Part shown: one piece after another, positions 26,167-46,077 of the stretch | Position numbering within the stretch: position 1 is the stretch's first letter | How the letters are laid out: every line of letters starts with the position of its first letter | Assembly (NCBI GenBank): GCA_900554365.1 | Contig: USGY01000002.1 | Location: 54,136 to 118,135 of the forward strand | DNA length: 64,000 nt | Direction: 5' to 3' | Origin: an uncultured Clostridium sp. | GTDB lineage: Bacteria; Bacillota; Clostridia; TANB77; CAG-508 | The notes under the pieces: model-generated | Databases searched by the model: none | Told to the model about the DNA's origin: nothing | The model's input: the letters and a program-made list of their open reading frames with translations, nothing else | Made by a program: the position numbers and the translations under genes

Positions 26167-26178
26167 GGTTTTTCCTCC

Positions 26179-28081: not shown

Positions 28082-28099
28082 TTTCGTCACTTCCTTGTT

Positions 28100-28275
28100 A
28101 TAAAAATTTATTAATGCTAGTCTACGAAGCATTAATAATTAGCAAAATTTATTTTGATCGAATTTAGGTAGTATTTTTTAGTACCTAATATTCGCCAGCC
28201 TGGTGTCTTGACACCTTTTTCGCTGTTTAGGGCAAAATGCCCTAATACCTTTTTTGCTCTCCGAGGGACTTTTTT
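28100..28275 (-). promoter_or_regulatory. conserved structured noncoding leader, copy 1 (possible ncRNA or cis-regulatory RNA)
   Basis: About 95% nt identity to 44441-44612, whereas the flanking genes are only ~75% identical. It contains perfect hairpins TTAGGGCAAAATGCCCTAA and GGTGTCTTGACACC and an AATGCT...AGCATT inverted repeat. Confidence 0.5.
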
Positions 28276-28415
28276 GATAAAAAACTTATTAATTTTTATC
28301 AAAATATTTTGAAAAAAGTTCAAATTTTGAGTTTAGAAATTTGAACTTTTTTCTTTACTTTTGTCTTTAAATATACTATAATAAATTTAGTTTTTGAATT
28401 AAGTTAGCATTTAGT

Positions 28416-29252
28416 TTAGTCGCTTATGCTAGCTTTTTCTTTTTGATTTTTATCATTTCCTTTTAGTTCAATTCCATAACACATTCTATACAACTTTTGA
28501 ATAATAGCATTGGATAATTCTTTATCATTACTTTGATAAAATCTATGTAATAAACTTTCCTTATTAAATCTAGTTGTTATTATAATTGGTAGTTTATTTT
28601 CATTTCTATTTTCTATAATTGTATATAATTTATCTAGAGCCCACTGGCTTATTTTTTCTGTTCCTAAATCATCTATTACAACCATATCTGTATTTGAAAA
28701 TAATTCTATTAATTCATTTTCTGACTTTGAATTATCTTTAAAAGTTTCTTTGATCATATCTAACAATGATGATAACCTCCCCATCAACACTAGTTTATCT
28801 TCTTTAATTAATTCATTTGAAATTGATGCTGCTAAATGTGTTTTTCCTACGCCTGTATTTCCAGTAATAATAAGTCCATTTTCTTGTTTGTTTTCGGTAC
28901 ATTTTTTAGTGTAATCTTTTGCTATTTCAACTTCATTTTTATTAGAATCTGTTACTTTAAAATTGTTAAAATTATAATCCTTTAGTCTTTTACTAATGTA
29001 ATTTTGCGAATAAAACTGATTGATAATTTCCCTATAATGTTCATTCTTTTTCTGCTCTTGAACTTCTAAATCAATTCCTTTCCAAAATTCAATAGATTCC
29101 TTACAAGTACATCTTTCATATTCAATGGAATCTGGAGATATATTAGTATATAAATAATCTAAGCCTATTGGTTTTAATTCTTTTCCACAAAATTTGCATT
29201 TATTGTGAAAATTCTTTTGATAATTATTACATTTTGTATTCTCTAAATCCAT
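28416..29252 (-). CDS. DnaC/IstB-like AAA+ helicase-loader ATPase (phage replication)
   Basis: It has Walker A GNTGVGKTHLA and Walker B VVIDDLG, plus an N-terminal Cys-rich zinc-binding region. It is a paralog of 44752-45621. Confidence 0.8.
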   Translation of the reverse strand: MDLENTKCNNYQKNFHNKCKFCGKELKPIGLDYLYTNISPDSIEYERCTCKESIEFWKGIDLEVQEQKKNEHYREIINQFYSQNYISKRLKDYNFNNFKVTDSNKNEVEIAKDYTKKCTENKQENGLIITGNTGVGKTHLAASISNELIKEDKLVLMGRLSSLLDMIKETFKDNSKSENELIELFSNTDMVVIDDLGTEKISQWALDKLYTIIENRNENKLPIIITTRFNKESLLHRFYQSNDKELSNAIIQKLYRMCYGIELKGNDKNQKEKASISD

Positions 29253-29742
29253 TTATATTCTCATTCTCCTTTCTGTTATTTTCCATAATTTCTTCTAATG
29301 TATTATCTTCTTGTGCGTTATTTTCCGTTATTGTAACGTTACTTTTTTCTTTTTCACTTTTCAATCTTTCACGATATTTTTGTTGTCTTATTCTATTTTG
29401 TTCTTTATATTTTTCGGATGATTCAATACTTTGGTATTCATCCCAATTCTTGATTTTGTATGCTCCTTCTTCTACAATTATCATATTTAATTCTTGAAAT
29501 TTTTTAATAATTTTCTCAATCTTTTTCTTAGACTTTCCCATAATCTTAAAAAAATCTTCTATTGTCATTGGTTTATTATCTCCTATTACTAATTTACCAT
29601 CGCAATTACATTCTATAGCAATAGTCAATAATTGAATCCATACTCTAAAATATGTATCTCCATCTTGTTCTTTTAGTAATATTTGAATTTTTCTGTTTGA
29701 AAATATTTTAATTTCAATTTTTAACCATTGTAAATTATACAT
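29227..29742 (-). CDS. phage replisome organizer N-terminal domain protein (replication initiator)
   Basis: The 171-aa ORF shares IFSNRKI.ILLKE..GDTYFR.WIQ.LTIA.ECN.DG with the paralog at 45593-46063, consistent with the Phage_rep_org_N family. Confidence 0.65.
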   Translation of the reverse strand: MYNLQWLKIEIKIFSNRKIQILLKEQDGDTYFRVWIQLLTIAIECNCDGKLVIGDNKPMTIEDFFKIMGKSKKKIEKIIKKFQELNMIIVEEGAYKIKNWDEYQSIESSEKYKEQNRIRQQKYRERLKSEKEKSNVTITENNAQEDNTLEEIMENNRKENENINGFREYKM

Positions 29743-29770
29743 ATCCTCCTTTCCTCACTTTCCTTACAAT

Positions 29771-29968
29771 CTAGCTAATAGATTGTTGTTCCATTTTTTC
29801 TAAATATTCATCTAGTGCTTGTACTCTAAATAAATATTTTCCACCAACTTTTGAGCATGGTATTTGCTTTCTTCTTACTAATTGATTAACTAACCAATAA
29901 GATATTCCTAAATACTCTGCTGCTTCTTTCATTGTTAGTGTAGTTCTTTGAACTTTTTGTAATTCCAT
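29771..29968 (-). CDS. xis: excisionase-family helix-turn-helix DNA-binding protein (Xis-like)
   Basis: The 65-aa ORF has the excisionase-type MerR-like HTH LTMKEAAEYLGISYWLVNQLVRRKQIPCSKVGGKYLF. Its paralog is at 46078-46293. Confidence 0.7.
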   Translation of the reverse strand: MELQKVQRTTLTMKEAAEYLGISYWLVNQLVRRKQIPCSKVGGKYLFRVQALDEYLEKMEQQSIS

Positions 29969-30117
29969 AGTATCACCTCCAATTTCTTTGTTATTATGTA
30001 TTGACTTTTGTTAGCAAATGTATTATATTGTGTGTAGTTAACTTTGTAAATACTTTATGGGTTATTTTGATAGCAAGTTAGCTTTATACATTTTTATTAA
30101 CTGTTAACGGAGGAATT

Positions 30118-31155
30118 ATGAATAAAATTAATAATGAAATACACATTTCTATTAATACTAGAGAAAATCTTAATCACATAACTTTATTATATGGAGATTT
30201 AAAGAAATTACATTACTATACTTTAGGTGAACTTTCTAATTATCATTTCTTTATTAAAGATCACTTATCATTTTATCGTACTGGAACAAATTTAATTGAC
30301 TTTTTAAATACAGATTTTTCTAATTTTGATGAGTATTTCGTTTGGTTTACTAAGTTTTTTACATCTTATGTTAAATACTTTGAAGAAGCTGATATTAAAA
30401 AATTAATAATTGACAAGTCCTATAGTTACAATGATATAGAAACACTGGCAAGAAAATATTTTGAAATAATAAAAAAAGATGCTGAAAAAGTTCAAGCAAT
30501 CTATTCTGAATTTGTTGACTATATTTTTAACAAGCATAGCATGGAAAATTCAAGAAAAATGACTAACCAGATGAGATTTTATATTTATTACACATCACAT
30601 TTTAAAACATTAAAACCATATGTTACTGATTTTCAAATAGATAATGCTTTCAATTATAAAATCTTTCCCGAATATCTAGAAAAGGGTGAAGATAAATTAT
30701 TAGAGTTTTTTACAACTGGACAACATTTTGCTGATGTATATTCTGATATTGGCGCAACTAGTTCTAATATTTATACCATATTATATATTACACTATTTCA
30801 ATTCGTGGAAGAAAACAATTTTATAATAAAAAAATGTAAGAATTGTGATAAATATTTTATAACAGATAATCTTAGAGTTAATTATTGTAATAATTTATTT
30901 AAAGGAACTCAAACTTGCAAAGATATTGGTAATCAAATCGCTCAAAGGATTAAGCAAGAAAATGATAAAGTTTATGGCAAATATCGTAAAATATATTCTA
31001 AAAAGGCTATGTTAGTTAAACGTAATCCTGATATAGAAGTTTATAAAAAGAATTACGAAAATTGGAAAAAAGAAGCTAAAAAATTTATGGATAATATAAG
31101 AAATGAAAAGAAAACTTATGAAGAATTTAATAAGTGGTTAGATAAAAATAAATAA
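30118..31155 (+). CDS. conserved hypothetical protein with a C-terminal Cys4 zinc-ribbon (paralog of 46475-47470)
   Basis: A 345-aa ORF with the KKCKNCDKYFI...YCNN...CKDIG pattern. It lies upstream of int on the same strand in both elements. Confidence 0.45.
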   Translation: MNKINNEIHISINTRENLNHITLLYGDLKKLHYYTLGELSNYHFFIKDHLSFYRTGTNLIDFLNTDFSNFDEYFVWFTKFFTSYVKYFEEADIKKLIIDKSYSYNDIETLARKYFEIIKKDAEKVQAIYSEFVDYIFNKHSMENSRKMTNQMRFYIYYTSHFKTLKPYVTDFQIDNAFNYKIFPEYLEKGEDKLLEFFTTGQHFADVYSDIGATSSNIYTILYITLFQFVEENNFIIKKCKNCDKYFITDNLRVNYCNNLFKGTQTCKDIGNQIAQRIKQENDKVYGKYRKIYSKKAMLVKRNPDIEVYKKNYENWKKEAKKFMDNIRNEKKTYEEFNKWLDKNK

Positions 31156-31241
31156 AGGAAAAGTTCAATTACTTTTCCTCTCTTTATATATAATTAATTT
31201 ATGACCATTTTCAACTTATTTATATTTCATATCTATGTCTA

Positions 31242-31928
31242 TTATATTTCTTTGCAAATATTATACTCATCAATATTGTCTAGTCTTTCATAAGATTCAT
31301 CTATATATTTGTCTATATTATTAATAAAATCTTTCCACTTAACGGCTTTTATATAGCTGCATTCTCCAGAATATATTTTTTTACTTGAATCATTTTGGCA
31401 TTCCGTTTGTAATTTATCCTTTTTATTAAATTTGTTTTCTCTTAAAATTTTAAATAATTTATTCGTATAATGAGTTCTACAAAAAGAAAAGCAACATGTA
31501 TGATCTTCCAAATAATAACTATATGAATCATTACTATCTGGTAATACAACAGCTAGCATTGCATTAGTTTTACTTGTTACATCTTGTCCAGATTCGTTTT
31601 TTCTTTTAGTTTCTTTAAGTGAATATGATATTTCCCATGGTATCCATTGATTCCTATCACTTTTTCCTTCTTCTTTCATTTTGGGAGAAATAAAAACTAT
31701 AGTTAGTGTACTATCATAAATCCTATCTTTTAATTTTTCCCATATGGTATCTTCGCTTAAATTAGATAAATCTTCTCCTTCACTTTCTCCTTTAAAAATA
31801 TGATTTGAACTATCTATTCTGTTTTCTAATTCGGTAACATAGTCTCTTACAGTAGAATTTTCCCAATAATTTAAATTTTTAACATCGTCATCTGCATATT
31901 TATATGATACAAATATTTTGTGTCCCAT
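31242..31928 (-). CDS. TIR-like domain protein (DUF1863/ThsB-like, second TIR of the operon) with a Cys-rich C-terminal extension
   Basis: It has KIFVSYKYADDD at the N-terminus and the TLTIVFISPKM...WIPWEISYSL pattern typical of bacterial TIR-like domains. A 13-nt gap separates it from the ThsB gene. Confidence 0.6.
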   Translation of the reverse strand: MGHKIFVSYKYADDDVKNLNYWENSTVRDYVTELENRIDSSNHIFKGESEGEDLSNLSEDTIWEKLKDRIYDSTLTIVFISPKMKEEGKSDRNQWIPWEISYSLKETKRKNESGQDVTSKTNAMLAVVLPDSNDSYSYYLEDHTCCFSFCRTHYTNKLFKILRENKFNKKDKLQTECQNDSSKKIYSGECSYIKAVKWKDFINNIDKYIDESYERLDNIDEYNICKEI

Positions 31929-31941
31929 TTTTTTCCCTTCC

Positions 31942-32409
31942 TTATTCTTCTATCCATTTTCCAAAGTTTTCATATCCATTGTCATTTATCCAATCATATG
32001 TCTTTGCTATCTGAAAGAAATATACATCTTCTCCATTTGAATTTTTTCCTAAACTTCCAAAAGTTGTATCACCTTTAGAAGATGTTAAACCAGTTCTCAT
32101 ATCTTTTATATTGTGTATATAAATTCCTATTATTTTATTTCCTCTTTTATAACTTTGTTGAAGTTCATATCTAACGAATTTTCTATTACTAGTTTCTGCA
32201 CCTATTAACACAGCTGTAACGCTTGTTCCAATTAATTGTTCATCTATCCAATCATATACTGCCTTATCTCCTTTTGCTTTTATTTTCTCAAATTCTGCTT
32301 TATCTATAAATCCAGCATCCTTATTACCTCTTATAACCCAACTATTTCTAACAACATTTGCTCTATTTACATCATTATCATAATGAAAACTAAAAAATAC
32401 ATTTTTCAT
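31942..32409 (-). CDS. thsB: Thoeris ThsB (TIR-domain signalling protein)
   Basis: The 155-aa ORF closely parallels B. cereus ThsB: VFFSFHYDNDVNRANVVRNSWV aligns with VFFSFHYQDVIDFRVNVVRNHWV, SVTAVLIGAETSNRKFVRYEL...GNKIIGIYIHN aligns with SVTCVLIGSQTFNRRWVRYEI...GNKIIGIHIN, and the C-terminal YDWINDNGYENFGKWI aligns with YDWVADDGYNKFSSWV. Confidence 0.85.
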   Translation of the reverse strand: MKNVFFSFHYDNDVNRANVVRNSWVIRGNKDAGFIDKAEFEKIKAKGDKAVYDWIDEQLIGTSVTAVLIGAETSNRKFVRYELQQSYKRGNKIIGIYIHNIKDMRTGLTSSKGDTTFGSLGKNSNGEDVYFFQIAKTYDWINDNGYENFGKWIEE

Positions 32410-32423
32410 TTAACTTCACCTCT

Positions 32424-32900
32424 CTAAATAAATTTTAGTAAAATTGTAATACAAATAAATAATATATAAAATCCTATTACAGAAAAAGACCTTACAGCCT
32501 CTAGCATAACAGCAAAAACTTCATATTTTAAATCTGTATTTTTAGGATTCATATTATATATTTCTTTCTCATCTATTTGATTTTCATTTAATTTTTTTAC
32601 AAAATTATTATATCTTTTTCTATACATTCTTTCAAAAGCCAAATAGTAAGTATCCATAATCATTCCTACCAAAGCTATAATTAGTCCTACCCACCAATAT
32701 CCTTTTAATTCTTTAACAGCTATTAGAATAGTAATGAATATTGTATATACCACTGCTATTAACGCTTTAATATTAGCACTATTTCCACCCATTCTGCTTA
32801 TAACATTTTGTAAAAATTCTAAATAAGCAACTACTGATGAACGATCTTTTAAATCAATTATTTTCTCTTTTGCATTTATCTTTGTATTATCTTTTTCCAT
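32424..32900 (-). CDS. small 3-TM membrane protein, first gene of the TIR operon (candidate non-canonical Thoeris effector)
   Basis: The 158-aa ORF has a ~45-aa soluble N-terminus followed by three predicted transmembrane helices. A 14-nt gap separates it from thsB. It is too short to hold SIR2/SLOG or Macro domains. Confidence 0.45.
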   Translation of the reverse strand: MEKDNTKINAKEKIIDLKDRSSVVAYLEFLQNVISRMGGNSANIKALIAVVYTIFITILIAVKELKGYWWVGLIIALVGMIMDTYYLAFERMYRKRYNNFVKKLNENQIDEKEIYNMNPKNTDLKYEVFAVMLEAVRSFSVIGFYILFICITILLKFI

Positions 32901-33143
32901 TTTTCTTCTCCTATTCTTTCGACAGATTATATCATATTTTCTGTAAATAATCCAGTATTTTCAAATAATTTTAGTCTTCAAATTTTCGACATTTTTTTAC
33001 ATTTTATTACATTTATAAATTTTTTAAGTTTCTTTTTGAAAACTATTGCATTTTGTTAACTATTATTATATAATACTTTTGTTAACGATTATATGAATAC
33101 TCCTCCCACCCATAGTTATACTTGAAAGGAGGTGAAATAAGTA

Positions 33144-34337
33144 ATGGCTGGGAGTATAGAAAAAAGAGGAAAAAATAGTTACAGGCTAACGGTATCTGAA
33201 GGATTTGACTTAAATGGAAATCCAATGATACACAGAAAGACAGTACATGGAACTAAAAAAGATGCAGAAGTTGAACTAGCAAAGTTTGTTACTGAAGTGC
33301 AAAATGGTTTAGTTGTTGATGGTAAATCTCTTAAATTTTCTGAATTTACTGAGATATGGAAACGAGATTATGGTTCAAAAGAACTTGCTCCTTCTACATA
33401 TAAACGTTATTGCAGAATGTTAGAAACAAGACTTTTACCATATTTCGGACATTTTTACATTAATAAAATTAGACCAACTGACATTATGAAGTTTTATGAT
33501 TTACTTGAAAAAGATACTCAGCTAACTAGAAAAAAAGGCAACAATGGAGAAAAAACTAAAAAGCCTTTGTCTGGTAAAACAATTTTAGAACATCATAGGT
33601 TACTTCGTGCAATGCTACACAGAGCAGTTTATTGGCAACTTATTGTTAGTAATCCTGCTGAACGTGTTCAAGCACCTAAGGCAAAAAAGCCTAAAAGAAA
33701 ATCTTATGATGATGAACAAACTAAAATATTACTAGAGAATTTAGAACAACTTTCTATAGAAGATACTAAGTACAAAGTTGCTATCATTCTTACTGTTTTT
33801 ACTGGTGTTCGTTTAGGTGAATTAATGGGATTGGAATGGCAAGACGTTGATTTCAAAAATGGAATAATCAGTATTAATCGTTCTAGTCAGTATCTATCAG
33901 ATATGGGAGTCTTTACAAAAGTTCCAAAAACAGAAAGTTCCATTAGAGAAATCGCAATACCCGAATTTATCATTTCTTTGCTTGAGGAATATAAGTTATG
34001 GTATGAAGAGCAAAAATTGATTTATAGCGAATTGTGGAACGATTCTAATAGGTTATTTGTACAAGCAGATGGCAAGCCAATGCATCCTTCTACAATCAGC
34101 AAATGGTTTGTTAGATATGTTGGACAAATTGGATTACCTGTAATTAATTTTCACGGATTAAGACATACAAATGCAAGTTTATTAGTTGCACAAAATGTTG
34201 ATATTGCAGTAATTTCTGCGAGATTAGGTCATGCACAAATAAGTACTACACTTGATTTTTATGTGCATCCACTACTTTCTCATAATAGAAAAGCTGGCTA
34301 TGCACTAGAAAACTTGTTATTACCAACAAGGTCTTAA
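33144..34337 (+). CDS. int: tyrosine-type site-specific integrase (phage integrase family), element A
   Basis: The 397-aa ORF has the catalytic motifs R...HGLRHT...LGHAQISTTLDFYVH, an N-terminal SAM-like domain, and an RBS GAAAGGAGGTG identical to that of the element-B integrase. Confidence 0.9.
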   Translation: MAGSIEKRGKNSYRLTVSEGFDLNGNPMIHRKTVHGTKKDAEVELAKFVTEVQNGLVVDGKSLKFSEFTEIWKRDYGSKELAPSTYKRYCRMLETRLLPYFGHFYINKIRPTDIMKFYDLLEKDTQLTRKKGNNGEKTKKPLSGKTILEHHRLLRAMLHRAVYWQLIVSNPAERVQAPKAKKPKRKSYDDEQTKILLENLEQLSIEDTKYKVAIILTVFTGVRLGELMGLEWQDVDFKNGIISINRSSQYLSDMGVFTKVPKTESSIREIAIPEFIISLLEEYKLWYEEQKLIYSELWNDSNRLFVQADGKPMHPSTISKWFVRYVGQIGLPVINFHGLRHTNASLLVAQNVDIAVISARLGHAQISTTLDFYVHPLLSHNRKAGYALENLLLPTRS

Positions 34338-34499
34338 TTTGAACTTTTTTCTGATTTTCACAAATTACAAATTTTCACGATAAAAAATAAAAGGCAACTA
34401 AATATATTTTTTTAGATTTCCCATTGCCTTTTGTAATGTATAAAAAGTATAAAATGATAATGAATTTTTATTGATATTTAAGGCGTTTGAGGTATTTAT

Positions 34500-34522
34500 T
34501 TTACCCAATTTTTACCCAATTC
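34500..34522. repeat. tandem arm-type repeat TTTTACCCAATTTTTACCCAATT (right arm of element A)
   Basis: Identical to the repeat at 16046-16068. Confidence 0.6.
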
Positions 34523-34620
34523 AACATAACATTGTCACTTTCAAACATTATTGCAACCAATTTAAAGGCATAAAAAAATACCCACAGTCATTGAAACTGT
34601 AAGTATTTATCCAATGGTTG

Positions 34621-34665
34621 CGGGAGTAAGACTCGAACTTACGACCTTCGGGTTATGAGAATTTG
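34621..34665 (-). repeat. att core: 3' half of the initiator tRNA-Met (anticodon loop to CCA) without the 5' half
   Basis: The reverse complement, CTCATAA-CCCGA-AGGTC-GTAAG-TTCGAGT-CTTAC-TCCCGCA-A-CCA, folds as anticodon loop (CAU) + 3' anticodon stem + variable loop + a perfect T-arm (TTCGAGT loop) + acceptor 3' strand ending CCCGCAACCA, as in tRNA-fMet. The upstream sequence does not supply the pairing 5' half. Confidence 0.7.
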
Positions 34666-34776
34666 ATTGTGATTTTTGAGGAATTTTGTTAACTTGAGTT
34701 TTTATTAGTTTAAATAGGGTTAGAGCAAATTGGTGAGATTATGAAATAGGTTAAAATTGGTTGTTTTTTGCAACGA

Positions 34777-34797
34777 TTGTCACCAATTTGTCACCAA
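34777..34797. repeat. tandem arm-type repeat TGTCACCAATTTGTCACCAAT (left arm of element B)
   Basis: A direct tandem repeat. The related variant GTCCCCAATTTGTCCCCAC lies at the right end, 48805-48823. Confidence 0.55.
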
Positions 34798-34827
34798 TAA
34801 TTTTTAATAAAAATGGAGGTTTTAACA

Positions 34828-35121: not shown

Positions 35122-35127
35122 TATTAT

Positions 35128-35154
35128 AAAAGGCGAGAAAGTTCTCGCCTTTTA
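35128..35154. terminator. bidirectional rho-independent terminator
   Basis: AAAGGCGAGAA-AGTT-CTCGCCTTTT perfect hairpin with a T-run, between convergent genes. Confidence 0.7.
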
Positions 35155-37896
35155 TATTGAATTTATTTTATTTTTAATAAGATTAACATCTTTATTATCT
35201 TCAATATGTTTTATAGTAGATATGATTTTATTTTGGCATTCTGGAGACCAATAAATTTTTAATTTTTCTTTTGCTCTAGTTATTGAAGTATAAAAAATAC
35301 TATGCGTAATTAATTCATCAATTTCATTTGTTATTATAATTTTTACAGAATTATACTCTAAGCCTTGTGATTTATGAATAGAAACTGCATATGCAACTGA
35401 GAAAGGTACAATTGTTGCTAGATCAGAATCATTATCCTCATCAGCATTTCTATACTTATTGACATAGAATTTTACAATTGATTTATTATTTTCAGATTCT
35501 CCTACCAATTCTAAATCTAAAAATTGTATTTCTAATTCATTAATTACTTTATCTATTTCTACTGAAAACCAAAATCTAAACTCATCTTCTTCTATATCTA
35601 CAATTTTGCCTTTTAAGTTATTATATATTACTGGTGAAAATCTATTAGTATCTCCAAATATAATTGGGTCTCCCACTTTATAAGTACCTAAATCTAAAAC
35701 TATTGACTTGTTTTTATTCTCATTTTGCAAATAGTAATTTATGCTATTTATTCCATATAATCCATCATAATTTAGACAAAGTATAATTTCATCTTCATCC
35801 TGCTTTTTAAATATTTCTTCACTAATTTCTTCTGAAAATTCTTTCTTTACTAACATTTCATCCACTCTATCATCGCCATTTCTAACCAATTCCCATAAAT
35901 CTAGCAATTCTTGTTTTGTACTTCTCCATGTAAAGTTTAATTCAAATACCGATGTTGGATTTACTAATTTTTTTGATAATGTAAACCAGTTTCCAAATGT
36001 AATAGATTCAATCTGGTAAATATCTCCAGCAAGCAATATAGCACTAAAATTTGCCTTTTCTAAAATTTGTCTCATATCCAAATTACTAATTGTACTACAT
36101 TCATCAATAATTAAAATGTCACATTCAGTATTATTGTTGGATTCACTAATAAATTTATGTACTGTCATAAAATCAGAATTTTGATTATTTACATTACTTT
36201 TTAGGTTTTCAACAGCAGAATTTGTATTAGCTAAGCATATTTTTCTTTCATTACTATAAAAGTATGTCAAATGTTTAATTAGAGTAGTTTTTCCTGTTCC
36301 AGCAGCCCCATATATTAGAGCAACTGTACTATTTTCATACATATTTAATAATATATTTTCTTTTTCTGGGCAATTAATTAAGTAATTTCCTTGATTTATA
36401 AAACTTTGAAATGATGCTTTATAGCCTCTTATTCCATGATTTGTCAAGGAGTTCAACTTATTAATTATATTAATAGTGTCATCTTCATATCCATGAATAT
36501 ATAAATTATTATTTTCTATTACCAAACACCTATTAGGTTTATGTTTATAATAAATTTTATTATTATAAGAATTGACCAATGTAGGAATATCTCCAAATTT
36601 TCTAACCTCATCTATACTAGTATATAATTTATTATTTTGCTCTGTATTCTTTTTTATATAACCTGCTAATAATTCATCATTTCTACCTTCTATAGGGACT
36701 ATATCTATCAAATCATATATTGTTGGATTATGATTTATTAATGATGATGCATATGGCATTTCCTCAAATGGAATGCACCCAAATTGCAAGTATAAATTCG
36801 ATAGAATAGAACAACTATCTAATGCAAGTTGATCCTTTATAATCCTATTATTGCAATTATATAATAAATATCTTAGTACAACATGTCCTTTACTATTATT
36901 TTTTATATAATATCTACAGTTATCAATTAAATCCAATATTCCAGTTGTTGTTGAATTACTTTTTATTTTTTCTTTTATTTTATCATAATATATATCATTT
37001 ATTGTTGCTAAATCTAATAAACTATATTGTGCTTTTGTTAGTAAGCTCATAACTTCTGTATATTCTTTGTTGTTAGCTTTATATTTTTTATTAATTCCAA
37101 AAACCTTATAAAAATTATTTATTTCACATTCTCTTATAGCAACAGACCAGTTGTTTATTATATTTATTGCCATGTCTCTTCCAAGAATATTTACTTTTGC
37201 TTTAACAATAGACAACTTTATTGAATAATTTGGCATAATATGCATTCTAGTAAATGCTATAATTTTATCATACTTATTAACCTTATCTTTAGCTGGTGAC
37301 AAAGTAACTTCATAATATATTTTTCCATTAACAAAAAAAGTTTTTAATTTTTGTACATAATATTTATCTCCACTGAATTGATCAGATGTATTAGTTGGAA
37401 CCTTTTTTATTACATCAGCAACCTTTTTATAATAATCACTAAAAGTACTATCTAAATCAAGTGGAAAATCAGTTATATTATTTAGAATATCTATGTTATA
37501 CAATATCTTCATATAATCCTTCAATAATATTAGATATTTATAGTATTTAAGCATAAGTCTTTCTGCAGAATCATCGTTTTCTATATAGTGTGATCTTGAT
37601 ATCTGCAGATAATAATGGAATCTTTCAATAAATTTTATTTTTCCCCTACTTTTTATATAATCTAATGCAATTCTAACAGTTCCATTGTCGTAATTAATTG
37701 TTTCTGTCTTTCCAGTTAAATATATCTTAACAGCAATATATTCTACAAAAGTTCTTAATGCATTTAATAAGTTTTGAGATAAAAATCCGCGGTCATCATC
37801 AGAAAATTTTTTTATATTTCGTTCAATATTAGAATTAGCTTCCATTATTTTTTTATCTATACTATTAAAATCATATTTTTCTTCAATTTTTATCAT
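35152..37896 (-). CDS. large protein with a C-terminal SF1 (RecD/Dda/UvrD_C_2-like) helicase domain and a ~500-aa N-terminal region of unknown function
   Basis: It has Walker A GAAGTGKTT, Walker B ILIIDE, and the SF1 C-terminal motif SIHKSQGLEYNSVKII...FYTSITRAKEKL. The start is trimmed to MIKIEEKY, which has an RBS. Confidence 0.55.
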   Translation of the reverse strand: MIKIEEKYDFNSIDKKIMEANSNIERNIKKFSDDDRGFLSQNLLNALRTFVEYIAVKIYLTGKTETINYDNGTVRIALDYIKSRGKIKFIERFHYYLQISRSHYIENDDSAERLMLKYYKYLILLKDYMKILYNIDILNNITDFPLDLDSTFSDYYKKVADVIKKVPTNTSDQFSGDKYYVQKLKTFFVNGKIYYEVTLSPAKDKVNKYDKIIAFTRMHIMPNYSIKLSIVKAKVNILGRDMAINIINNWSVAIRECEINNFYKVFGINKKYKANNKEYTEVMSLLTKAQYSLLDLATINDIYYDKIKEKIKSNSTTTGILDLIDNCRYYIKNNSKGHVVLRYLLYNCNNRIIKDQLALDSCSILSNLYLQFGCIPFEEMPYASSLINHNPTIYDLIDIVPIEGRNDELLAGYIKKNTEQNNKLYTSIDEVRKFGDIPTLVNSYNNKIYYKHKPNRCLVIENNNLYIHGYEDDTINIINKLNSLTNHGIRGYKASFQSFINQGNYLINCPEKENILLNMYENSTVALIYGAAGTGKTTLIKHLTYFYSNERKICLANTNSAVENLKSNVNNQNSDFMTVHKFISESNNNTECDILIIDECSTISNLDMRQILEKANFSAILLAGDIYQIESITFGNWFTLSKKLVNPTSVFELNFTWRSTKQELLDLWELVRNGDDRVDEMLVKKEFSEEISEEIFKKQDEDEIILCLNYDGLYGINSINYYLQNENKNKSIVLDLGTYKVGDPIIFGDTNRFSPVIYNNLKGKIVDIEEDEFRFWFSVEIDKVINELEIQFLDLELVGESENNKSIVKFYVNKYRNADEDNDSDLATIVPFSVAYAVSIHKSQGLEYNSVKIIITNEIDELITHSIFYTSITRAKEKLKIYWSPECQNKIISTIKHIEDNKDVNLIKNKINSI

Positions 37897-37923
37897 ATTA
37901 ATTAGTCCCTTCTCATATAATGT

Positions 37924-37972
37924 AAAAAGCAAAATAATTCTGTAATATATAATTACTATTATTTTGCTTTTC
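37924..37972. repeat. AT-rich long-stem hairpin repeat (family member 3 of 3)
   Basis: AAAAAGCAAAATAAT-loop-ATTATTTTGCTTTTC, between the Fic and helicase genes. Confidence 0.55.
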
Positions 37973-37978
37973 TTTAGT

Positions 37979-38914
37979 TTATTTATTTCCAATATAATAT
38001 TTTATCATTTCTGTGTATTGATCTTGTGCATTTAAACAAGTATCTATTAAATAACCTTTTTCTTTATTAGTTTGATATTGATTTAATCCCCTATAGTAGA
38101 ATAATTTATCTTTATCTAAAATAATAAATGGTACAATATTATTTTTTAAACATTCTTTAAATGCGATTATTCTACCAACTCTTCCGTTGCCATCTTGAAA
38201 TGGATGTATCTTTTCAAATTTAGCATGAAATTCTATTATTTCATTTATTGTTTTTTGTTTTAAAGATTCATACCATTCTAATAATTTTTTCATATCTCTT
38301 TCAACATTTTTAGGCTCTGTAGTTTTTAGCCCTCCAACCTCATTCGGTAATTTTTTATAATCTCCAACTATAAACCAATCTTTCCTGCTATCTGACGTTC
38401 CCTCTTTTAATATTTTGTGAAATTCTTTTATCATTTTTTCTGTTAGTTTTTTATCTGCTATTTCTAACATATAATCAACTAATTTAAAATGATTAGCAGT
38501 TTCTAACACATCATCTAAATCTGTTACTGAGTCTTTTTCTGCTAATAATGTGTTAGTTTCATAAATATATCTAGTCTGATCTTCTGTAAGTTTACTTCCC
38601 TCAATATGATTAGTATTATATGCAAAAGTTATTTGAGTATTATGATATAAATTACCTTTTAGTTTCATTTTTTTTTGTTCTCTTAATACTTCTAAAATAT
38701 TTATTCTTGATATATCAAAAGTATCTTCTTTTATCAATTCATCTACTGATACTTCAAACAAGTCAGCTAATTTCTTTAATGATTCTATATTAGGTTCTAA
38801 AGTTCCAGCTTCATATTTGGAAATAGTTGCTGCTTTTACTCCTAATGTTTCTGCAACTTCATTTTGAGTCATTTTTTTATTTTCTCTATATAATTTTATC
38901 TTTTCTCCTAACAT
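37979..38914 (-). CDS. HTH (XRE-family) plus Fic/Doc-family protein (putative AMPylase or toxin-like)
   Basis: It has an N-terminal Cro/C1-type HTH (KMTQNEVAETLGVKAATISKYE) and the Fic motif HPFQDGNGRVGR. Confidence 0.8.
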   Translation of the reverse strand: MLGEKIKLYRENKKMTQNEVAETLGVKAATISKYEAGTLEPNIESLKKLADLFEVSVDELIKEDTFDISRINILEVLREQKKMKLKGNLYHNTQITFAYNTNHIEGSKLTEDQTRYIYETNTLLAEKDSVTDLDDVLETANHFKLVDYMLEIADKKLTEKMIKEFHKILKEGTSDSRKDWFIVGDYKKLPNEVGGLKTTEPKNVERDMKKLLEWYESLKQKTINEIIEFHAKFEKIHPFQDGNGRVGRIIAFKECLKNNIVPFIILDKDKLFYYRGLNQYQTNKEKGYLIDTCLNAQDQYTEMIKYYIGNK

Positions 38915-39023
38915 AATAAAAACTCTCCTTTTTGATTATAATAATATTATATCATATTATTTCCGAAAAAGAAAGTTTTTATTTATGTTTTGTGTAATTA
39001 TTTCCAAAAAGGAATTTGTTTTA

Positions 39024-39857
39024 TTATTCTTTATTCATATTTTCTTTTAAAGTTTTTCCATCTCTATTTTTCCATTGTGTTAATCCATTTGAATTTCTGC
39101 CTAATACCATAGCTGCTGCAGTAGATGGTGAAGAAAATATTATATCTTTTAGAAATACCCCTTGGTCTACTATTTTTTGATTTCTTAATTCATTCCATTT
39201 ATTTCTTAAAGACTGACTACTAGCTTTTTTAAACTCTTCACTACTTTGTGAACCTTTAAAAACTATAAATCCCTCTTCTGATTGAGCACCAGACGCTTTT
39301 AATCCAATAGAATTAATATAATAAATTTCTTCTTCTTTAACTTCTTGTTGCGTTAGAATCTTATCAAAAATACGATATCCATATACTGAAGTTAACAATA
39401 CTATTTTTTCATAAAATTTCACTGCTCTTATTTCATCTGCACCATCTAAAGAAGATTTTGTTGGTTCTGTATCATTATCAATAATAAATCTTTCAACTTC
39501 TTTTGCTTTTGTATATAGCATATTTTCAATAAATTTTATATGTGCTTTATTTAAAGAATTATTTTGACTAACAAATACTAAACAATCATTCCAAAAATCT
39601 TTTGTTTTATTATGTTGTAATAGTCTTTTATATATGTTTTCTGCCTCACCTATATATGCTCTATTTTCTCCTGTTTCTTCATCAACACCAAATAAAATAT
39701 ATACCCCTGTGTTTTCTATATTTTTAAGCTCTTTTGATTCGTTTAACCTATTTCTAGGAATCTTATAACTTACTCCTATCCATTCATCTAAATTGCACTG
39801 TACTATTCCAGTTGGCATTCCATTTCTTAATATCATTGTAATTACACTTGTTTCCAT
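39024..39857 (-). CDS. GIY-YIG nuclease family protein with a DUF4357-like C-terminal domain
   Basis: The GIY-YIG core is GVYILFG...RAYIGEAENIYKRL. It lies immediately downstream of the R-M-S gene. Confidence 0.6.
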   Translation of the reverse strand: METSVITMILRNGMPTGIVQCNLDEWIGVSYKIPRNRLNESKELKNIENTGVYILFGVDEETGENRAYIGEAENIYKRLLQHNKTKDFWNDCLVFVSQNNSLNKAHIKFIENMLYTKAKEVERFIIDNDTEPTKSSLDGADEIRAVKFYEKIVLLTSVYGYRIFDKILTQQEVKEEEIYYINSIGLKASGAQSEEGFIVFKGSQSSEEFKKASSQSLRNKWNELRNQKIVDQGVFLKDIIFSSPSTAAAMVLGRNSNGLTQWKNRDGKTLKENMNKE

Positions 39858-39872
39858 ATATTTTCCTCGCTT

Positions 39873-42800
39873 TTAATTGCATATTGTTTTTATATTTTCT
39901 TCCATATCTTCATCAAGTTTCAAGATTTCTTTTTCGCATCTTGATATTTTATCATTTATTATCGAAATATCTTTTACAAATTTTTCTTGTTCATCATAAT
40001 TAACAACAGGGATCTTAACTTCCTTAATTTTATTTAGATGAAGATTAGGAACACCCATACCAATAACTTTATTTAAAAATTCATTTCTAATCGTTTCTGA
40101 ATTTATCACTTCTAAAACATATTCTGGCAAAATATTATTTTTAGTTCTTAATACTGCTAAACTAACGTAAACATCAAATGGAATATCTCTATCAACTATT
40201 GCTGCATATCCTATTGTACCATTTTTAGCTATTAGAATATCATTTAATTTAGGCGAAATTCTTTTAGAAAGCTTCTCATGTAACTGATTTGATACATATT
40301 TTATATTATCCCAATCTATTTTTTTATTTATTACATTTGTCGCTGATAAAAAAGGAATTCCATTTTTAGTATATTCAGGAGTATTATGTGTTCCGTCAGT
40401 AATTAATTCGCATATTTCATCTAATGTATTATATGTCTTTGTATTAAATGTTGAATTTATCAATTTATTCTTTTCATTAAAATAATCTTTTATTTTTTCT
40501 TCTATATTTTTCTTTTGCTCTTGGATTTCATTAGCTCTTTTAGTAAATTTATCTTGTATGTTGGTAGGAGGTACAGGAATTAATATATTCTTTAAGTTTT
40601 CTTGATTTATCCCTCCTATTCCAGCACCATTTACGTTTGCTTTTAATATTTCTTGTCCTTTCTTTGATCCAAGTATATAAAATAAATAGTCCTGAGAAAC
40701 ATTTTGATTAGTTCTTATAATATAAACATGTTCATTTGCTAACATTTCCTCATTAATTTTATTTGGTATTTTACAAATCTTCCCTGACAAAGCACCATCC
40801 TTACATATTAGTATATCTCCACCATTAATTTTACCTGTATTTGCTTTGTCATAAAAATCCTTTGGTACATATTTTTTATTTTTTAAATCAAGTTTTTGAT
40901 TTAATCCAATATGTTCCCCACCAATAGATATAATCCCTGTTTTATATTTTGACACTCCGCCTCTTGGTCTATCTCCAACTTCTATTGTATCTAATAAATT
41001 TCCTAGTTTCATATTTGAATAGTTACTGTTAAATTTTATTTTTTTTTTGTTTATTAAAGAAATGCTTTTATCAAAAATAACTTTTGTAAAATCCAATAAA
41101 TCAGTGGTTTTTACTATTTTTATATTTTTACTAATTTCTTCTTTAATATCAATTTGCTTATTTAATAATGCATTTTTTACATAATAATTTGCTTTTAAAC
41201 TATTATCATCACAATTATCATCGTATAAACTTGTTACATGATTACCTTTTTCGTCTCTATATATCTTTATTCCTTCTGATCCTCTTCTATTGCTAAACTC
41301 ATATCCTAGAAAATCTTTCTCATCTTGTTTTTGTTTAGATTTTACTTTTATGATAGTAGTCATATCGTTGCACATCAAAATGTAATTAAATAATTTTTCT
41401 CTCTCAGTAGATATAATTGTATTTACAATAAGTTCATCAATATCAATTCTATCTAGACTTTTCTTTGATTTTAGTATAGTATTTATTACATGATTTTTAT
41501 ATTCTTTATAAAAATTATGTTTTAAAATATTTTTATTTGGAATTTTTCTGAATATTGATAAATAATCTGTAATATCAATATTTTCATAAACATCCTCTAA
41601 ATACTTGCTAACAATACTTGTTATTCCGTTAATAGTAAAATCTTGTGGATTATCAATAAAATTATTTAATGCATATTCTATATTTTTGTGAAAAATATCT
41701 TCCCTTCGTTCTAAAAATAAAGTCACTGTATTAGTTCCTGTAGCCATAAATGTATTTGAACCAAATTCAGTAATAGCTGCTACTCTAAAATACTTAAATA
41801 GTAATTCTCTAGTTGGAATATATATTCCAGAATTTGTCAGAATTGAAATAGGCAATATAATTCCAGCAATTCCCCCTGGTTTTAATAATTGTTTTGTTCT
41901 TTCTATAAATAAACATTCTATTTCAGAACTATCATCTGTTAAATATTTATATAGTTCAAAACTATCTTTTCCATTCTCTAGAGTATTTTTGAATGAAGAT
42001 ACCGAATAAGGTGGATTAGCTATTACAATATCAAATTGTTTATTATCTTGGTGGTTTTCTTTACTATATTCTTTAAGTATTCCCTTATAATCTTTTGATT
42101 TTTCAAAATTATCTAATCCATTTGCCCTTATAATATTAGCATCACCATCTCCATTTAAAAATGAACTTACTTTTGTTGTTTTTACTAATCTATAATCTGC
42201 TTCTATTCCATATACACAATCATTAGCCCACTTAAACTCTCCTTGTTTCCATAGGTTAATATTATCTTTTGCTTCTCTTCTAATGTTAGTTGAATCATAC
42301 TTTGAAATAACTTTTTGTAACTCGTCCATATATTCTGTTAGGAAATGTCCACTGCCAGAAGCATAATCAATAGCAATCGGTAAAATATTATTTTCATCAT
42401 TATTAATTTTTTTGTCTATTATTTCTTTTATAGGAATTGATGAAATAATAAATTTTGCAATGGGTACAGGTGTAAAAAACTGACCAGCTTCCTGTTTTAT
42501 ACTTGTATTCAATAATAGTTCAAAAAAATCTCCAAGAAATTGTTGTTTATGTGAATATCTAAATTGATATGGTTGCAATAATTCTACAATTTCTTTAACT
42601 ACAATTCCATTCATTTTAAAAGACTGTTCATTATATACTTCTTTAAATGCAAATTCTGGATTTTTTTGTAGTCTCAATTTTTGAAACATCTCTTCAATTT
42701 GATTTTTAGTGTTTTCCTCATGAATATTTGCTAATTTATTTTTTAAATCCTCTTCTGAATAATCTGTAACTTCTATTTCAAGAAATTTTTTCATTCCTCG

Positions 42801-43682
42801 TTTATATAAATTATTAAGCCTTCCTTGTAATTTTTCATCTGTATCATCTTCACGCCATTGAAAATCAACTTCTTCTTCATCTCTTTTATCTTCATCTATT
42901 ATTTTGCATATAAATAAATTTAATATCTTATTAAATGCATTTGGCTTGTCTGAAACCGCATTATGCCTTAAAATTTCTGCAAATTGGTTAAAAATTCTTC
43001 CACTATCATCTTGACTTAGTTCTTTTAGCTGTCCTCTTCTTAAGGATTTATTCTCAAAATCATAACAATTTACCCATTCCTCAAAAATACCATTATCGTA
43101 AAAATTTTTATTCCAATAATCATAAATTTCTTTTTGATTATTAAGTTCATTCCATATCTTATCTACTTTAACAATTGCATTTTTGTATTCTATTTTCTCA
43201 TTTATTAATTTAGAAGTATATAGGCATAAATATTCAGCTGATTTATCTTGAATATAATAAGAAAAAAGTTGTCCCCCGTAATTTAACATTCTTTTCTGTT
43301 CTTTTTTATATTCTTCGCCCCATGTTTTACATTCAATCATTATATATGCTTTATTATCTTTAAAAATTAGAATATCTAATTTTCCTTTTTCTTTTCTTCC
43401 AAGTGGAAATTTGTGTTCTAAAGATAAATCTTCAGGATTATATCCCTTTTCCAATATTCTATCTATACACTCTAAAACAACAAAATTTTCTGAATTTTCA
43501 AAATTACTAGTAGTTAGATCTCCTATTTTGATCAAATTTCCATAATTTATTTTTTGTTCTTCGAAATTAATATTTATAATATATCCATTATAGTTTTTTT
43601 CAAAAATGTCTTTAACCCCATCTTTAGGATAATAATTTAATTTTAATAACAATTTTTTTATTTGTTCATTAGATATCTTCAT
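39873..43682 (-). CDS. Type IIB-like single-chain restriction-modification-specificity enzyme (PD-(D/E)xK nuclease + gamma-class N6-adenine MTase + two TRDs)
   Basis: The 1269-aa ORF has an N-terminal PD...D/ExK pattern (GKLDILIFKD...IMIECK), MTase motifs FFTPVPIAKFI (X/I region) and VIANPPYS (IV), and a C-terminal HsdS-like duplicated TRD (GDILICKDGALSGKI; ILIAKNGTIGYAAIV). The size and architecture resemble AloI/PpiI/CjeI. Confidence 0.8.
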   Translation of the reverse strand: MKISNEQIKKLLLKLNYYPKDGVKDIFEKNYNGYIININFEEQKINYGNLIKIGDLTTSNFENSENFVVLECIDRILEKGYNPEDLSLEHKFPLGRKEKGKLDILIFKDNKAYIMIECKTWGEEYKKEQKRMLNYGGQLFSYYIQDKSAEYLCLYTSKLINEKIEYKNAIVKVDKIWNELNNQKEIYDYWNKNFYDNGIFEEWVNCYDFENKSLRRGQLKELSQDDSGRIFNQFAEILRHNAVSDKPNAFNKILNLFICKIIDEDKRDEEEVDFQWREDDTDEKLQGRLNNLYKRGMKKFLEIEVTDYSEEDLKNKLANIHEENTKNQIEEMFQKLRLQKNPEFAFKEVYNEQSFKMNGIVVKEIVELLQPYQFRYSHKQQFLGDFFELLLNTSIKQEAGQFFTPVPIAKFIISSIPIKEIIDKKINNDENNILPIAIDYASGSGHFLTEYMDELQKVISKYDSTNIRREAKDNINLWKQGEFKWANDCVYGIEADYRLVKTTKVSSFLNGDGDANIIRANGLDNFEKSKDYKGILKEYSKENHQDNKQFDIVIANPPYSVSSFKNTLENGKDSFELYKYLTDDSSEIECLFIERTKQLLKPGGIAGIILPISILTNSGIYIPTRELLFKYFRVAAITEFGSNTFMATGTNTVTLFLERREDIFHKNIEYALNNFIDNPQDFTINGITSIVSKYLEDVYENIDITDYLSIFRKIPNKNILKHNFYKEYKNHVINTILKSKKSLDRIDIDELIVNTIISTEREKLFNYILMCNDMTTIIKVKSKQKQDEKDFLGYEFSNRRGSEGIKIYRDEKGNHVTSLYDDNCDDNSLKANYYVKNALLNKQIDIKEEISKNIKIVKTTDLLDFTKVIFDKSISLINKKKIKFNSNYSNMKLGNLLDTIEVGDRPRGGVSKYKTGIISIGGEHIGLNQKLDLKNKKYVPKDFYDKANTGKINGGDILICKDGALSGKICKIPNKINEEMLANEHVYIIRTNQNVSQDYLFYILGSKKGQEILKANVNGAGIGGINQENLKNILIPVPPTNIQDKFTKRANEIQEQKKNIEEKIKDYFNEKNKLINSTFNTKTYNTLDEICELITDGTHNTPEYTKNGIPFLSATNVINKKIDWDNIKYVSNQLHEKLSKRISPKLNDILIAKNGTIGYAAIVDRDIPFDVYVSLAVLRTKNNILPEYVLEVINSETIRNEFLNKVIGMGVPNLHLNKIKEVKIPVVNYDEQEKFVKDISIINDKISRCEKEILKLDEDMEENIKTICN

Positions 43683-43796
43683 TTTATTTCCCCCATGGCA
43701 TTATATCATAAAAATTTTTTTTTGCATAGCCCTTTTCGACATTTTTTTCAATCCTATAAATTACTTATCTCAAGCATATTTTCGCCATTTTAGTGC

Positions 43797-44420
43797 TTAA
43801 TTTCTTCCAAAAAATTCATCATATATGTAACCGTCTTTTATATACTTCTCTGTCAATTCCATTTTGTATTTTACTAATAGTTCTAAATACTTTTGTTTAA
43901 ATACATTTTTACAAAGCCATTCCACTCCTCCTTTTGAAATTATCACTTTATTATTTATTAAAAATTTATATTCACTCAATCCACAGTCACACAGTTTCTT
44001 AATTGCTTTTCTAACAGTAATATCTTTTCTATTAAAATACTTACATAATTGTTTTATATTCATATCTTCATTCCACCAATTTTCATCGTGATCCACCTTC
44101 AGAAATTCTTCATATAATTTAATTCTTGTTTCAAAAAAATCTACATCAGCATCAATTAATGATTTTTCTTTTTGAAAATATACTCGCTTTAACCATTCAT
44201 ATCCCTCTATTAAAATAAAATATTTTCTACTTCTAATTTTCTCACTTCTCCATCTACATGTTGGATGTTTTTTTACCATAACATCTACAGCTTTTCTTAA
44301 ATCCATATGAGTTATTTCTTTTCCATGTTTAGTTGTTATTCCTAATGAATGTAGTCTCTTTAAAATTTTGTTATAAGATAAGAAAATACTATCTAAAACT
44401 TGCTCTGAATCTCTTCTCAT
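43797..44420 (-). CDS. conserved phage/satellite-associated protein (paralog of 27458-28081)
   Basis: A 207-aa ORF about 75% identical to the element-A copy. Confidence 0.55.
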   Translation of the reverse strand: MRRDSEQVLDSIFLSYNKILKRLHSLGITTKHGKEITHMDLRKAVDVMVKKHPTCRWRSEKIRSRKYFILIEGYEWLKRVYFQKEKSLIDADVDFFETRIKLYEEFLKVDHDENWWNEDMNIKQLCKYFNRKDITVRKAIKKLCDCGLSEYKFLINNKVIISKGGVEWLCKNVFKQKYLELLVKYKMELTEKYIKDGYIYDEFFGRN

Positions 44421-44440
44421 TTTTTCATCACTTCCTTAAT

Positions 44441-44612
44441 ATAAAATTTATTAATGCTAGTTTACAAAGCATTAATAATTAGCAAAATTTATTTTGCTCG
44501 AATTTTAGGTAGTATTTTTTAGTACCTAATATTCGCCAGCCTGGTGTCTTGACACCTTTTTTGCTGTTTAGGGCAAAATGCCCTAAAACCTTTTTAGCTC
44601 TCCGAGGGATAT
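44441..44612 (-). promoter_or_regulatory. conserved structured noncoding leader, copy 2
   Basis: See copy 1. The same hairpins are preserved (TTAGGGCAAAATGCCCTAA, GGTGTCTTGACACC, AATGCT...AGCATT). Confidence 0.5.
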
Positions 44613-46063: not shown

Positions 46064-46077
46064 ATCCTCCCTTCTTT

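Follow-up and report, generated by a model that had tools for sequence, protein, structure and literature searches.

A conserved hairpin array as a probable orphan origin of transfer of the Tn1549 type on two relaxase-less defence islands of an uncultured gut Clostridium

The stretch of DNA analysed here (the window) comprises 64,000 nucleotides of an uncultured Clostridium sp. (contig USGY01000002.1, positions 54,136 to 118,135) and contains two copies of a noncoding block of about 165-175 nt, at 28100-28275 and 44441-44612, which were delimited by pairwise alignment and by repeat finder families D3 and D5. Each copy lies on the minus strand upstream of a gene of an uncharacterised family, here called X, and on the best reading each sits in an integrative mobilizable element of about 14 kb that holds defence cargo and encodes no relaxase. 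The two elements, A and B, share the same order of parts: a tRNA-Met fragment with a tyrosine integrase, a divergent DUF6076 gene, an Xis-like HTH_17 gene, a replisome organiser, a DnaC-like loader, a terminator-like hairpin, the block, X, and variable defence cargo. The block is probably an orphan origin of transfer (oriT) of the type found in Tn1549, as argued below. On its gene-sense (minus) strand it consists of six consecutive hairpins, H0-H5, with short linkers between them. The features that carry the argument are given here, all on the minus strand; R1 and R2 denote covariance models of the full six-hairpin structure and of its core, respectively.

28108..28267, minus strand: block copy A, hairpins H0-H5; proposed oriT region of integrative element A (alignment; R1, 224.9 bits; R2, 70.5 bits at 28189-28251)
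44448..44608, minus strand: block copy B, hairpins H0-H5; proposed oriT region of integrative element B (alignment; R1, 221.1 bits; R2, 73.2 bits at 44530-44592)
28257..28265 (copy B 44598-44606), minus strand: H0, mini-hairpin CTC-GGA-GAG, the stem of which covaries
28227..28245 (copy B 44568-44586), minus strand: H1, TTAGGGCA-TTT-TGCCCTAA
28196..28225, inner part 28202-28215 (copy B 44537-44566, inner part 44543-44556), minus strand: H2, outer stem CAGC/GCTG around inner GGTGT-CAAG-ACACC
28187..28199 (copy B 44528-44540), minus strand: predicted nic region GCTGG|CGAATATT, nick 28195|28194 (copy B 44536|44535), from alignment with Tn1549 and pRJ6; the minus strand reads GGTGTCAAGACACCAGGCTGGCGAATATT across the predicted nick and GGTGTCAAGACACCAGGCTGGCGAATATTAGG over a longer stretch
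28159..28194 (copy B 44499-44535), minus strand: H3, CGAAT-A-TTAGGTA...TACCTAA-ATTCG, the first DNA 3' of the predicted nick
28139..28158 (copy B about 44479-44498), minus strand: H4, local hairpin AGCAAAA-TAAA-TTTTGCT, with one mismatch in copy A
28108..28138 (copy B 44448-44478), minus strand: H5, TTATTAATGCT-N9-AGCATTAATAA
27458..28084, minus strand: gene X, 208 aa; predicted two-winged-helix DNA-binding protein, proposed oriT accessory (relaxosome) protein
43797-44420, minus strand: gene X, copy B, 207 aa

The two block copies differ by six substitutions and one 1-nt indel. The resulting identity of about 96% agrees with the ~95% of the original prediction, which had been made from the letters of the window and had set this leader against flanking genes of only ~75% identity. 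The gap between leader and gene is real, but the copies of X downstream of the block are less diverged than had been stated (82% nucleotide and 77% amino-acid identity). The spacer from the block toward the DnaC-like gene cannot be aligned between elements A and B. Among 80 related genome loci (L001-L080) from metagenome-assembled genomes (MAGs) of gut Clostridia (CAG-273, CAG-343, CAG-440, CAG-575 and others), the block was found upstream of X in every one whose upstream sequence is long enough. In more than 60 other gut Clostridia genomes its identity to the window copy is 84-93%, whereas the X proteins of these genomes are 66-86% identical. Thus, the noncoding block is under stronger constraint than the coding sequence of X across dozens of species, as had been supposed from the two copies. 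Gene conversion, which had been named beforehand as the explanation that would speak against this view, was checked in the homologues and is excluded as the source of the block identity, since the block precedes X homologues in all these genomes.

Two natural variants of the block were observed. In L070 (5743-6002) an insertion of about 60-70 nt separates H4 from H5, so that the match extends over 260 nt, and in L048 (1280-1377) roughly H1-H4 are lost and 98 nt are left. A blastn comparison of the block with GenBank phages and PLSDB plasmids returned nothing, as did blastn with the L100 region; an exact-pattern scan for the block in 2.9 million IMG/VR viral contigs gave no match, and literature searches for literal block sequences retrieved nothing relevant. 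A metagenome scan used a pattern whose fixed spacing was wrong, and its sole match, L103, was discarded as a GC-rich chance match. The core can be written, for example, as the pattern GGTGYNNNNRCACCNNGCTKG.

The start of X was placed by alignment of 60 homologues at ATG 28084 (44420 in copy B), behind the ribosome-binding site (RBS) AAGGAAGTGA. Of the paralogous 224- and 207-aa genes that had been described downstream of the block, the latter stands, whereas the real protein of element A has 208 aa: the 224-aa open reading frame (ORF, 27458-28132) begins inside H5 and has its N-terminal 16 codons within the hairpin array. These 16 extra codons and a 63-aa ORF across the block (28132-28323, minus strand) are almost certainly noncoding. 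X matched no entry of Pfam or NCBIfam. Its AlphaFold2 model (pLDDT 85, pTM 0.81) has two winged-helix domains with a long helix between them, and in a Foldseek search these domains resemble Tn916 Xis (probability 0.94 over 61 columns); the oriT-proximal protein TraN of pIP501 is also in the list, and the search gave no significant global match (best E = 0.17). At 90% identity the family forms more than 2,200 clusters, which all come from uncultured gut Firmicutes, and tblastn of X and of a distant homologue against PLSDB plasmids returned nothing. From its genomic context, X is likely an oriT accessory protein.

Conservation of pairing was examined hairpin by hairpin. The hand-tabulated stem variants of H0 across families are CTC/GAG, GTC/GAC, GCC/GGC and CCC/GGG, around a loop that reads GGA or AGC. 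H1 has an invariant base, TTAGG/CCTAA, and covarying apical pairs, every wobble being G-U on the minus strand; this hairpin is probably the binding site of an accessory protein. L099, L100 and the L035/39/67/71 clade keep the H3 helix with sequences that differ considerably. H4 is swapped for AGAACAAC-AAA-GTTGTTCT in L100 and for GAGCAAT-TAA-ATTGCTC in L078 with the pairing kept, and shows double changes in six of its seven pairs, while H5 has compensatory changes in 10 of 11. When 75 instances were aligned to R1, 95.2% of cells were standard pairs, as compared with 32-52% in controls with partners slid by 1-3 columns, and both sides had changed in 29 of the 52 pairs; none of 500 shuffles reached the observed values. 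The hand-tabulated variants agree with this model-based covariation. The folding energy relative to shuffled sequences corresponds to z = -3.9 for RNA of the minus strand, z = -4.3 for RNA of the plus strand, and z = -5.3 for DNA. The prediction of a structured region, for which covariation among homologues had been proposed as the check, is therefore supported by both the folding scores and the abundant compensatory changes. The strand that folds can be told from the wobble cells in H0-H2, where 14 are G-U and 3 are A-C; the folding strand is therefore the minus (gene-sense) strand, which also carries the putative nic motif.

The inverted repeats originally singled out, TTAGGGCA/TGCCCTAA, GGTGT/ACACC and AATGCT/AGCATT, are real and conserved; H0, H3 and H4 had been missed. 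The palindrome CCAGCCTGG is incidental, since its two central bases vary freely among homologues (AG, AT, AC, AA, TA). A multibranch fold closed by GCAAAAA/UUUUUGC (helix P1), obtained by single-sequence folding, was rejected because its 3' strand forms H4, which covaries in L078, L079 and L100. The run of U after H5 is present in the window and in L099 and L100 and absent in the L012 and L020 clades. H5 is thus not a terminator in all lineages, and its candidacy as an intrinsic terminator or attenuator was rejected, as the U-run is lost in whole clades.

Evidence of the function of the block comes from more distant relatives. Relatives that match X over its full length, at 20-42% identity, were retrieved by a profile search. 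Homologues with 25-40% identity lie directly upstream of a NikA-like gene, followed by a PF03432 relaxase, in conjugative elements (L081, L085, L087, L091, L095, L097 and L100-L102), with genes of the leading-region type (ssb, ardC and DpnD-PcfM) upstream and a sortase or Rep3 gene nearby. X stands alone in other integrative elements, of which one type has a large serine recombinase (L089, L090, L093) and another (L099) combines a tyrosine integrase with NikA-like and AAA_25 genes and SIR2 cargo. The H0-H1-H2 core precedes X in all distant homologue loci. Across these loci X ranges from 29 to 41% identity; core identity to the window is 75-77% at an X identity of 40-41%, and 60-66% at an X identity of about 30%. 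The Rep3 conjugative plasmid L100 also has H3, H4 and H5, with different sequences and the same pairing, and a more distant relaxase-linked group keeps H0-H2 only, without H3-H5. Three unrelated integrative backbones keep only X and the block (tyrosine-integrase/DnaC in the window, serine-recombinase, and tyrosine-integrase/NikA/AAA_25), as a mobilization cassette predicts. A tblastn search of the window and of L001-L080 (within 6 kb of the 80 loci) detected no PF03432-type relaxase, and Pfam scans found no relaxase domain in the tested ORFs in and around both elements.

The relaxases of the X-linked elements are 27-29% identical to MOBP relaxases that follow mobC on enterococcal plasmids. One such mobC-relaxase module is that of the vanB transposon Tn1549 on pMG2200 (L105, with the same MobC and relaxase accessions as L104), where its neighbours are vanRSYWHBX, xis, int, topoisomerase III and VirB4 genes. 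The core model R2 has 60 positions and was built from window-type and X-linked cores only, without any Tn1549 sequence. In Tn1549 it finds a match upstream of mobC and antisense to that gene (27 bits; E = 8e-7 and 3.5e-7), whereas R1, the full-length model, fails to detect the transposon. On the matched strand, Tn1549 reads AGGGGT-TTGGGGATTTCCCCAA-CAAGC-(extra hairpin)-GGGAGTGGCTACACTCCC-TAT-GCTTG-C, and the order of parts common to Tn1549 and the X-linked elements is GGGT, H1, CAAGC, an optional hairpin as in L091, the inner repeat, AT and GCTTG.

The optional hairpin of L091 (4850-4870) reads CCTTTGC-GAAA-GCAAAGG and lies inside the internal loop of H2; it contains GCGAAAGC, known to form a DNA mini-hairpin of unusual stability. 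In Tn1549, another inserted hairpin occupies that position. Two weaker R2 matches were also seen in L105, at 21509-21611 (plus strand) and 12024-12127 (minus strand), with 19.4 and 18.2 bits and E of about 1e-4 to 4e-4; these could be extra oriT-like copies or GC-rich false positives.

A table in PMC7755788 that quotes oriTDB places the Tn1549 oriT at [22239-22266] (28 bp) with the nic site RYGCTTG|C and gives the pRJ6 nic site as TGCTTG|CCA. The inner repeat of Tn1549 together with TATGCTTGC spans 27 nt, which fits the 28-bp minimal oriT of the table (PMC7755788). Judged by sequence, H2 is the equivalent of the inverted repeat in this minimal oriT. The nic motif falls at the 3' arm of H2: L100 (ACGCTTG|C) and L091 (ATGCTTG|C) match the consensus exactly, and the distant group reads ATGCTTG|A. 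The family of the window reads (A/T)NGCTGG|C, with ATGCTGG|C or ACGCTGG|C in other close members (7 of 8 consensus positions). The T-to-G change in the nic motif is matched by an A-to-C change in the 5' arm of H2 (CAAGC/GCTTG versus ACAGC/GCTGG). GGTGT-CAAG-ACACC ends 7 nt before the predicted nick, and the corresponding repeat of Tn1549, GGGAGTG-GCTA-CACTCCC, ends 8 nt before its nick. From this alignment, we infer the nick position in both copies.

Taken together, the block travels with a DNA-binding gene linked to relaxosome genes, is homologous to the region upstream of mobC in Tn1549, carries a putative nic motif at a fixed place 7 nt past an inverted repeat, and occurs in either orientation relative to the adjacent gene. 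These properties identify it, in our judgement with good probability, as an oriT of the MOBP7 (Tn1549) type, and as the window elements have no relaxase, it would be an orphan oriT on an integrative mobilizable element of about 14 kb that brings its own accessory protein and defence cargo. The original prediction had mentioned, among other options, a protein-binding site such as an origin or a packaging site; the term origin appears apt in the sense of transfer and not of replication, and for a packaging site the GenBank-phage and IMG/VR searches gave no match. Under the oriT model, X would bind the hairpin and inverted-repeat region H0/H1 after excision, and a MOBP7-type (PF03432) relaxase that a conjugative element in the same cell provides in trans would recognise GGTGT-CAAG-ACACC and nick the minus strand 7 nt downstream of this inner repeat, at GCTGG|C (28195|28194 and 44536|44535). 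The minus strand would be transferred 5' to 3', so that the recipient would receive H3-H5, X and the cargo first and H0-H2 last, and the inverted repeat of the late-entering H0-H2 would serve termination and recircularisation. H3-H5 may be a single-strand priming signal or part of the 5' untranslated region (5'-UTR) of X.

Several observations weigh against this interpretation. The window copies read AGGCTGG|C and agree with the nic consensus at 6 of 8 positions, having GCTGG for GCTTG and AG for RY. The nearest relaxase-bearing relative seen, the L100 plasmid, has GCTTG, as opposed to GCTGG in the window, and a cognate helper relaxase for GCTGG was not identified in the 64 kb of genome covered. 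The location of the Tn1549 oriT upstream of mobC is taken from a table quoting oriTDB and is reportedly that of Tsvetkova et al. 2010. The covariation counts come from a model-fitted alignment of related sequences and hence lean toward structure, and the wobbles of H5 are neutral (12 G-U versus 12 A-C). The block is far longer than a minimal oriT, to which H3-H5 are surplus. It is probably also transcribed, given the promoter-like sequence just upstream and its fixed place before the RBS of X, and it may have an additional role at the RNA level. Nicking and transfer of the window elements are predictions from sequence.

The surplus hairpins invite a composite explanation, in which H0-H2 are the oriT proper and H3-H5, as the first single-stranded DNA (ssDNA) in the recipient, form a signal like a single-strand origin (sso) or single-strand initiation site (ssi) that primes the complementary strand. 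On the transferred strand, H3-H5 are the DNA that directly follows the predicted nick on its 3' side. They show strong covariation, with hardly any sequence shared between families (6 of 7 pairs in H4, 10 of 11 in H5), they are absent from the distant relaxase-linked group, and the block folds as ssDNA with the z of -5.3 given above. On the other side, no sequence hallmark of known sso types such as ssoA, ssoT, ssoU and ssoW was seen, none having been looked for, and the wobbles of H5 lack strand bias. We regard this explanation as possible and somewhat doubtful.

A purely cis-regulatory role, in which the block is the 5'-UTR RNA of X and controls X and the downstream cargo as a ligand- or protein-responsive leader, an attenuator or an antitermination element, is improbable. 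Leader RNAs that act with a protein in antitermination are known from Gram-positive conjugative elements, and here both copies have a promoter-like sequence that stops 6-8 nt short of H0, folding is on the gene-sense strand, covariation is strong, and a U-run comes after H5 in the window, L099 and L100. However, the homologous core of Tn1549 is antisense to the adjacent mobC, which excludes an mRNA leader for such an arrangement and shows that the core has no fixed sense orientation. A conserved expression platform is lacking: the L012 and L020 clades have no U-run, the Shine-Dalgarno sequence is unpaired in all sequences, and the long-range helix P1 of the single-sequence fold is not conserved (L078, L100). 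Conservation extends to nearly every base of the loops and linkers, which is not so in typical riboswitches, and the putative relaxase nic motif occupies a fixed place in the structure. A search of Rfam 15 with the window and 8 related loci gave no match at gathering scores and nothing credible at E <= 10. The structured-RNA reading first preferred (cis-regulatory leader, small RNA or antitoxin RNA) is therefore probably incorrect.

There is very little to recommend a plus-strand antisense small RNA that regulates X and ends at the complements of H2 and H1. The plus-strand hairpins are followed by T-runs, and copy B has a weak plus-strand promoter-like TTTACA-16-CAAAAT, but the wobbles in H0-H2 favor the minus strand by 14 to 3, the T-runs are the complement of A-rich linkers that are not kept in the distant group, and the promoter-like hexamers are weak and no commoner than in shuffled sequence. 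The idea that these hairpins terminate incoming plus-strand transcription is unsupported on the same wobble count. Least credible is a role as replication origin serving the neighbouring replisome-organiser and DnaC-like genes, or as a pac/cos packaging site that hijacks a helper phage, since the block, although it directly follows the replication genes in the window as origins do in some satellites, travels with X and relaxase genes and not with replication genes in its relatives, has no iterons, and matches none of the 2.9 million IMG/VR viral contigs or the GenBank phages; a replication origin was accordingly rejected.

The elements that carry the proposed oriT have the following further parts.

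28416..29968, minus strand: upstream module of element A, with Xis-like HTH_17 gene (29771-29968), replisome organiser (29227-29742) and DnaC-like loader (28416-29252)
44752-46293: upstream module of element B, equivalent to that of element A
33144..34676, plus strand: element A tyrosine integrase (33144-34337) and putative attachment (att) fragment, the 3' half of tRNA-Met (34615-34676)
47349-48698 and 48893-48954: element B integrase and putative att fragment
28311..28353, minus strand: hairpin flanked by A/T runs, at the end of the replication-gene operon upstream of block A
about 44620-44660: a different hairpin at the same place in element B
28274..28302, minus strand: promoter-like TTGATA-17-TATCAA just upstream of H0 in copy A (by eye; weak in AT-rich DNA)
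44644-44617, minus strand: promoter-like TGTACA-16-TATAAT in copy B (promoter scan; weak in AT-rich DNA)
16575-20076: OLD-family ATPase/TOPRIM and UvrD helicase, Gabija-like
20085-21413: RNase T-like exonuclease
24391-27015: AlwI-type endonuclease and D12 methyltransferase (restriction-modification, R-M)
31242-32409: two ThsB-like TIR proteins, Thoeris-like (cargo region 31242-32900)
35152-37992: SF1 (superfamily 1) helicase
37979-38914: HTH-Fic protein
39024-39857: GIY-YIG/DUF4357 protein
39873-43682: fused methylase/specificity protein of 1269 aa (type IIG-like R-M)
49712-50776: GmrSD
50798-51904: YhcG/DUF1016

The segments 34615-34676 and 48893-48954 are 62-nt direct repeats, 87% identical, that correspond to the 3' half of tRNA-Met (from the CAT anticodon loop to CCA) on the minus strand, and each directly follows an integrase gene. 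Their sequence and position suggest att sites of elements integrated in tandem; no intact tRNA was found within the 64-kb window. Promoter-like sites are no more frequent than in shuffled sequence. An identical plus-strand promoter-like TTTACT-17-TATAAT was observed in both elements (28354-28382 and 44687-44715), just beyond the upstream hairpin and facing the 3' end of the DnaC-like gene, hence antisense. The DUF6076 genes are divergent from the Xis-like gene (30118-31155, plus strand, in element A; 46475-47470, plus strand, in element B), and since the ORFs of DUF6076 and integrase (47349-48698) overlap by about 120 nt in element B, the start of one of them is probably mis-called.

If the oriT reading is true, the islands probably spread by means of the relaxase of another element, and the two tandem defence islands would be not dead cargo but conjugatively mobilisable without a relaxase or mating apparatus of their own. 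Standard tools that look for relaxases would score this route of gut defence genes as non-mobile. The work yields a covariance model, a predicted nick site that can be tested, and a likely function for the uncharacterised X family. A bolder version, which we offer tentatively and think less likely to be right than wrong, would have X and the hairpin array form a portable mobilisation cassette on at least three unrelated backbones, with an unusual polarity in which X and cargo go first, with H3-H5 as a new establishment signal for priming or early expression, and with GCTGG as the mark of an undiscovered helper relaxase lineage. An oriT is an ordinary kind of element; less ordinary is its setting, with a new accessory-protein family in abundant defence islands of uncultured gut bacteria.

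Among known systems, the closest is the oriT of Tn1549, which is served by a MOBP7 relaxase and MobC. The two share the order of parts on one strand (GGGT, a TTRGGG.../...CCCYAA hairpin, CAAGC, an inner repeat, 2-3 nt and GCTKG|C) and an intergenic place before a relaxosome accessory gene. They differ in that the Tn1549 oriT is inverted relative to its accessory and relaxase genes, that MobC takes the place held by the two-winged-helix X next to the window block, that the nic core of the window is GCTGG|C, that the window elements lack a relaxase and a type IV secretion system, and that the window subfamily has the extra hairpins H0 and H3-H5. The oriT of the pC221/pRJ6 type (mobCAB), compared by its nic motif only (TGCTTG|CCA in the table of PMC7755788), belongs to the same relaxase superfamily and lies upstream of an accessory gene (PMC4993578), but has its relaxase in cis. 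The accessory protein itself can be compared with Tn916 Xis, which its winged-helix domains resemble, and with pIP501 TraN, a two-domain, oriT-proximal DNA-binding protein in the same Foldseek list; X has no sequence similarity to either. In lacking a relaxase, the window elements resemble the staphylococcal plasmids that carry oriT mimics of pWBG749 and pSK41 and rely on a relaxase in trans (PMC4993578), and the mobile genetic elements of Faecalibacterium that have only a putative MOBP7-like oriT and for which a relaxase in trans was proposed (PMC12084326); in all of them an oriT-like sequence with several inverted repeats lies on a relaxase-less element. SmpO, which sets the oriT specificity of pWBG749 (PMC4993578), is analogous to X travelling with the block. 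Unlike these orphan oriT plasmids, the carrier in the window is a tRNA-integrated, replication-competent defence island of uncultured gut Clostridia, in which the accessory gene is always retained.

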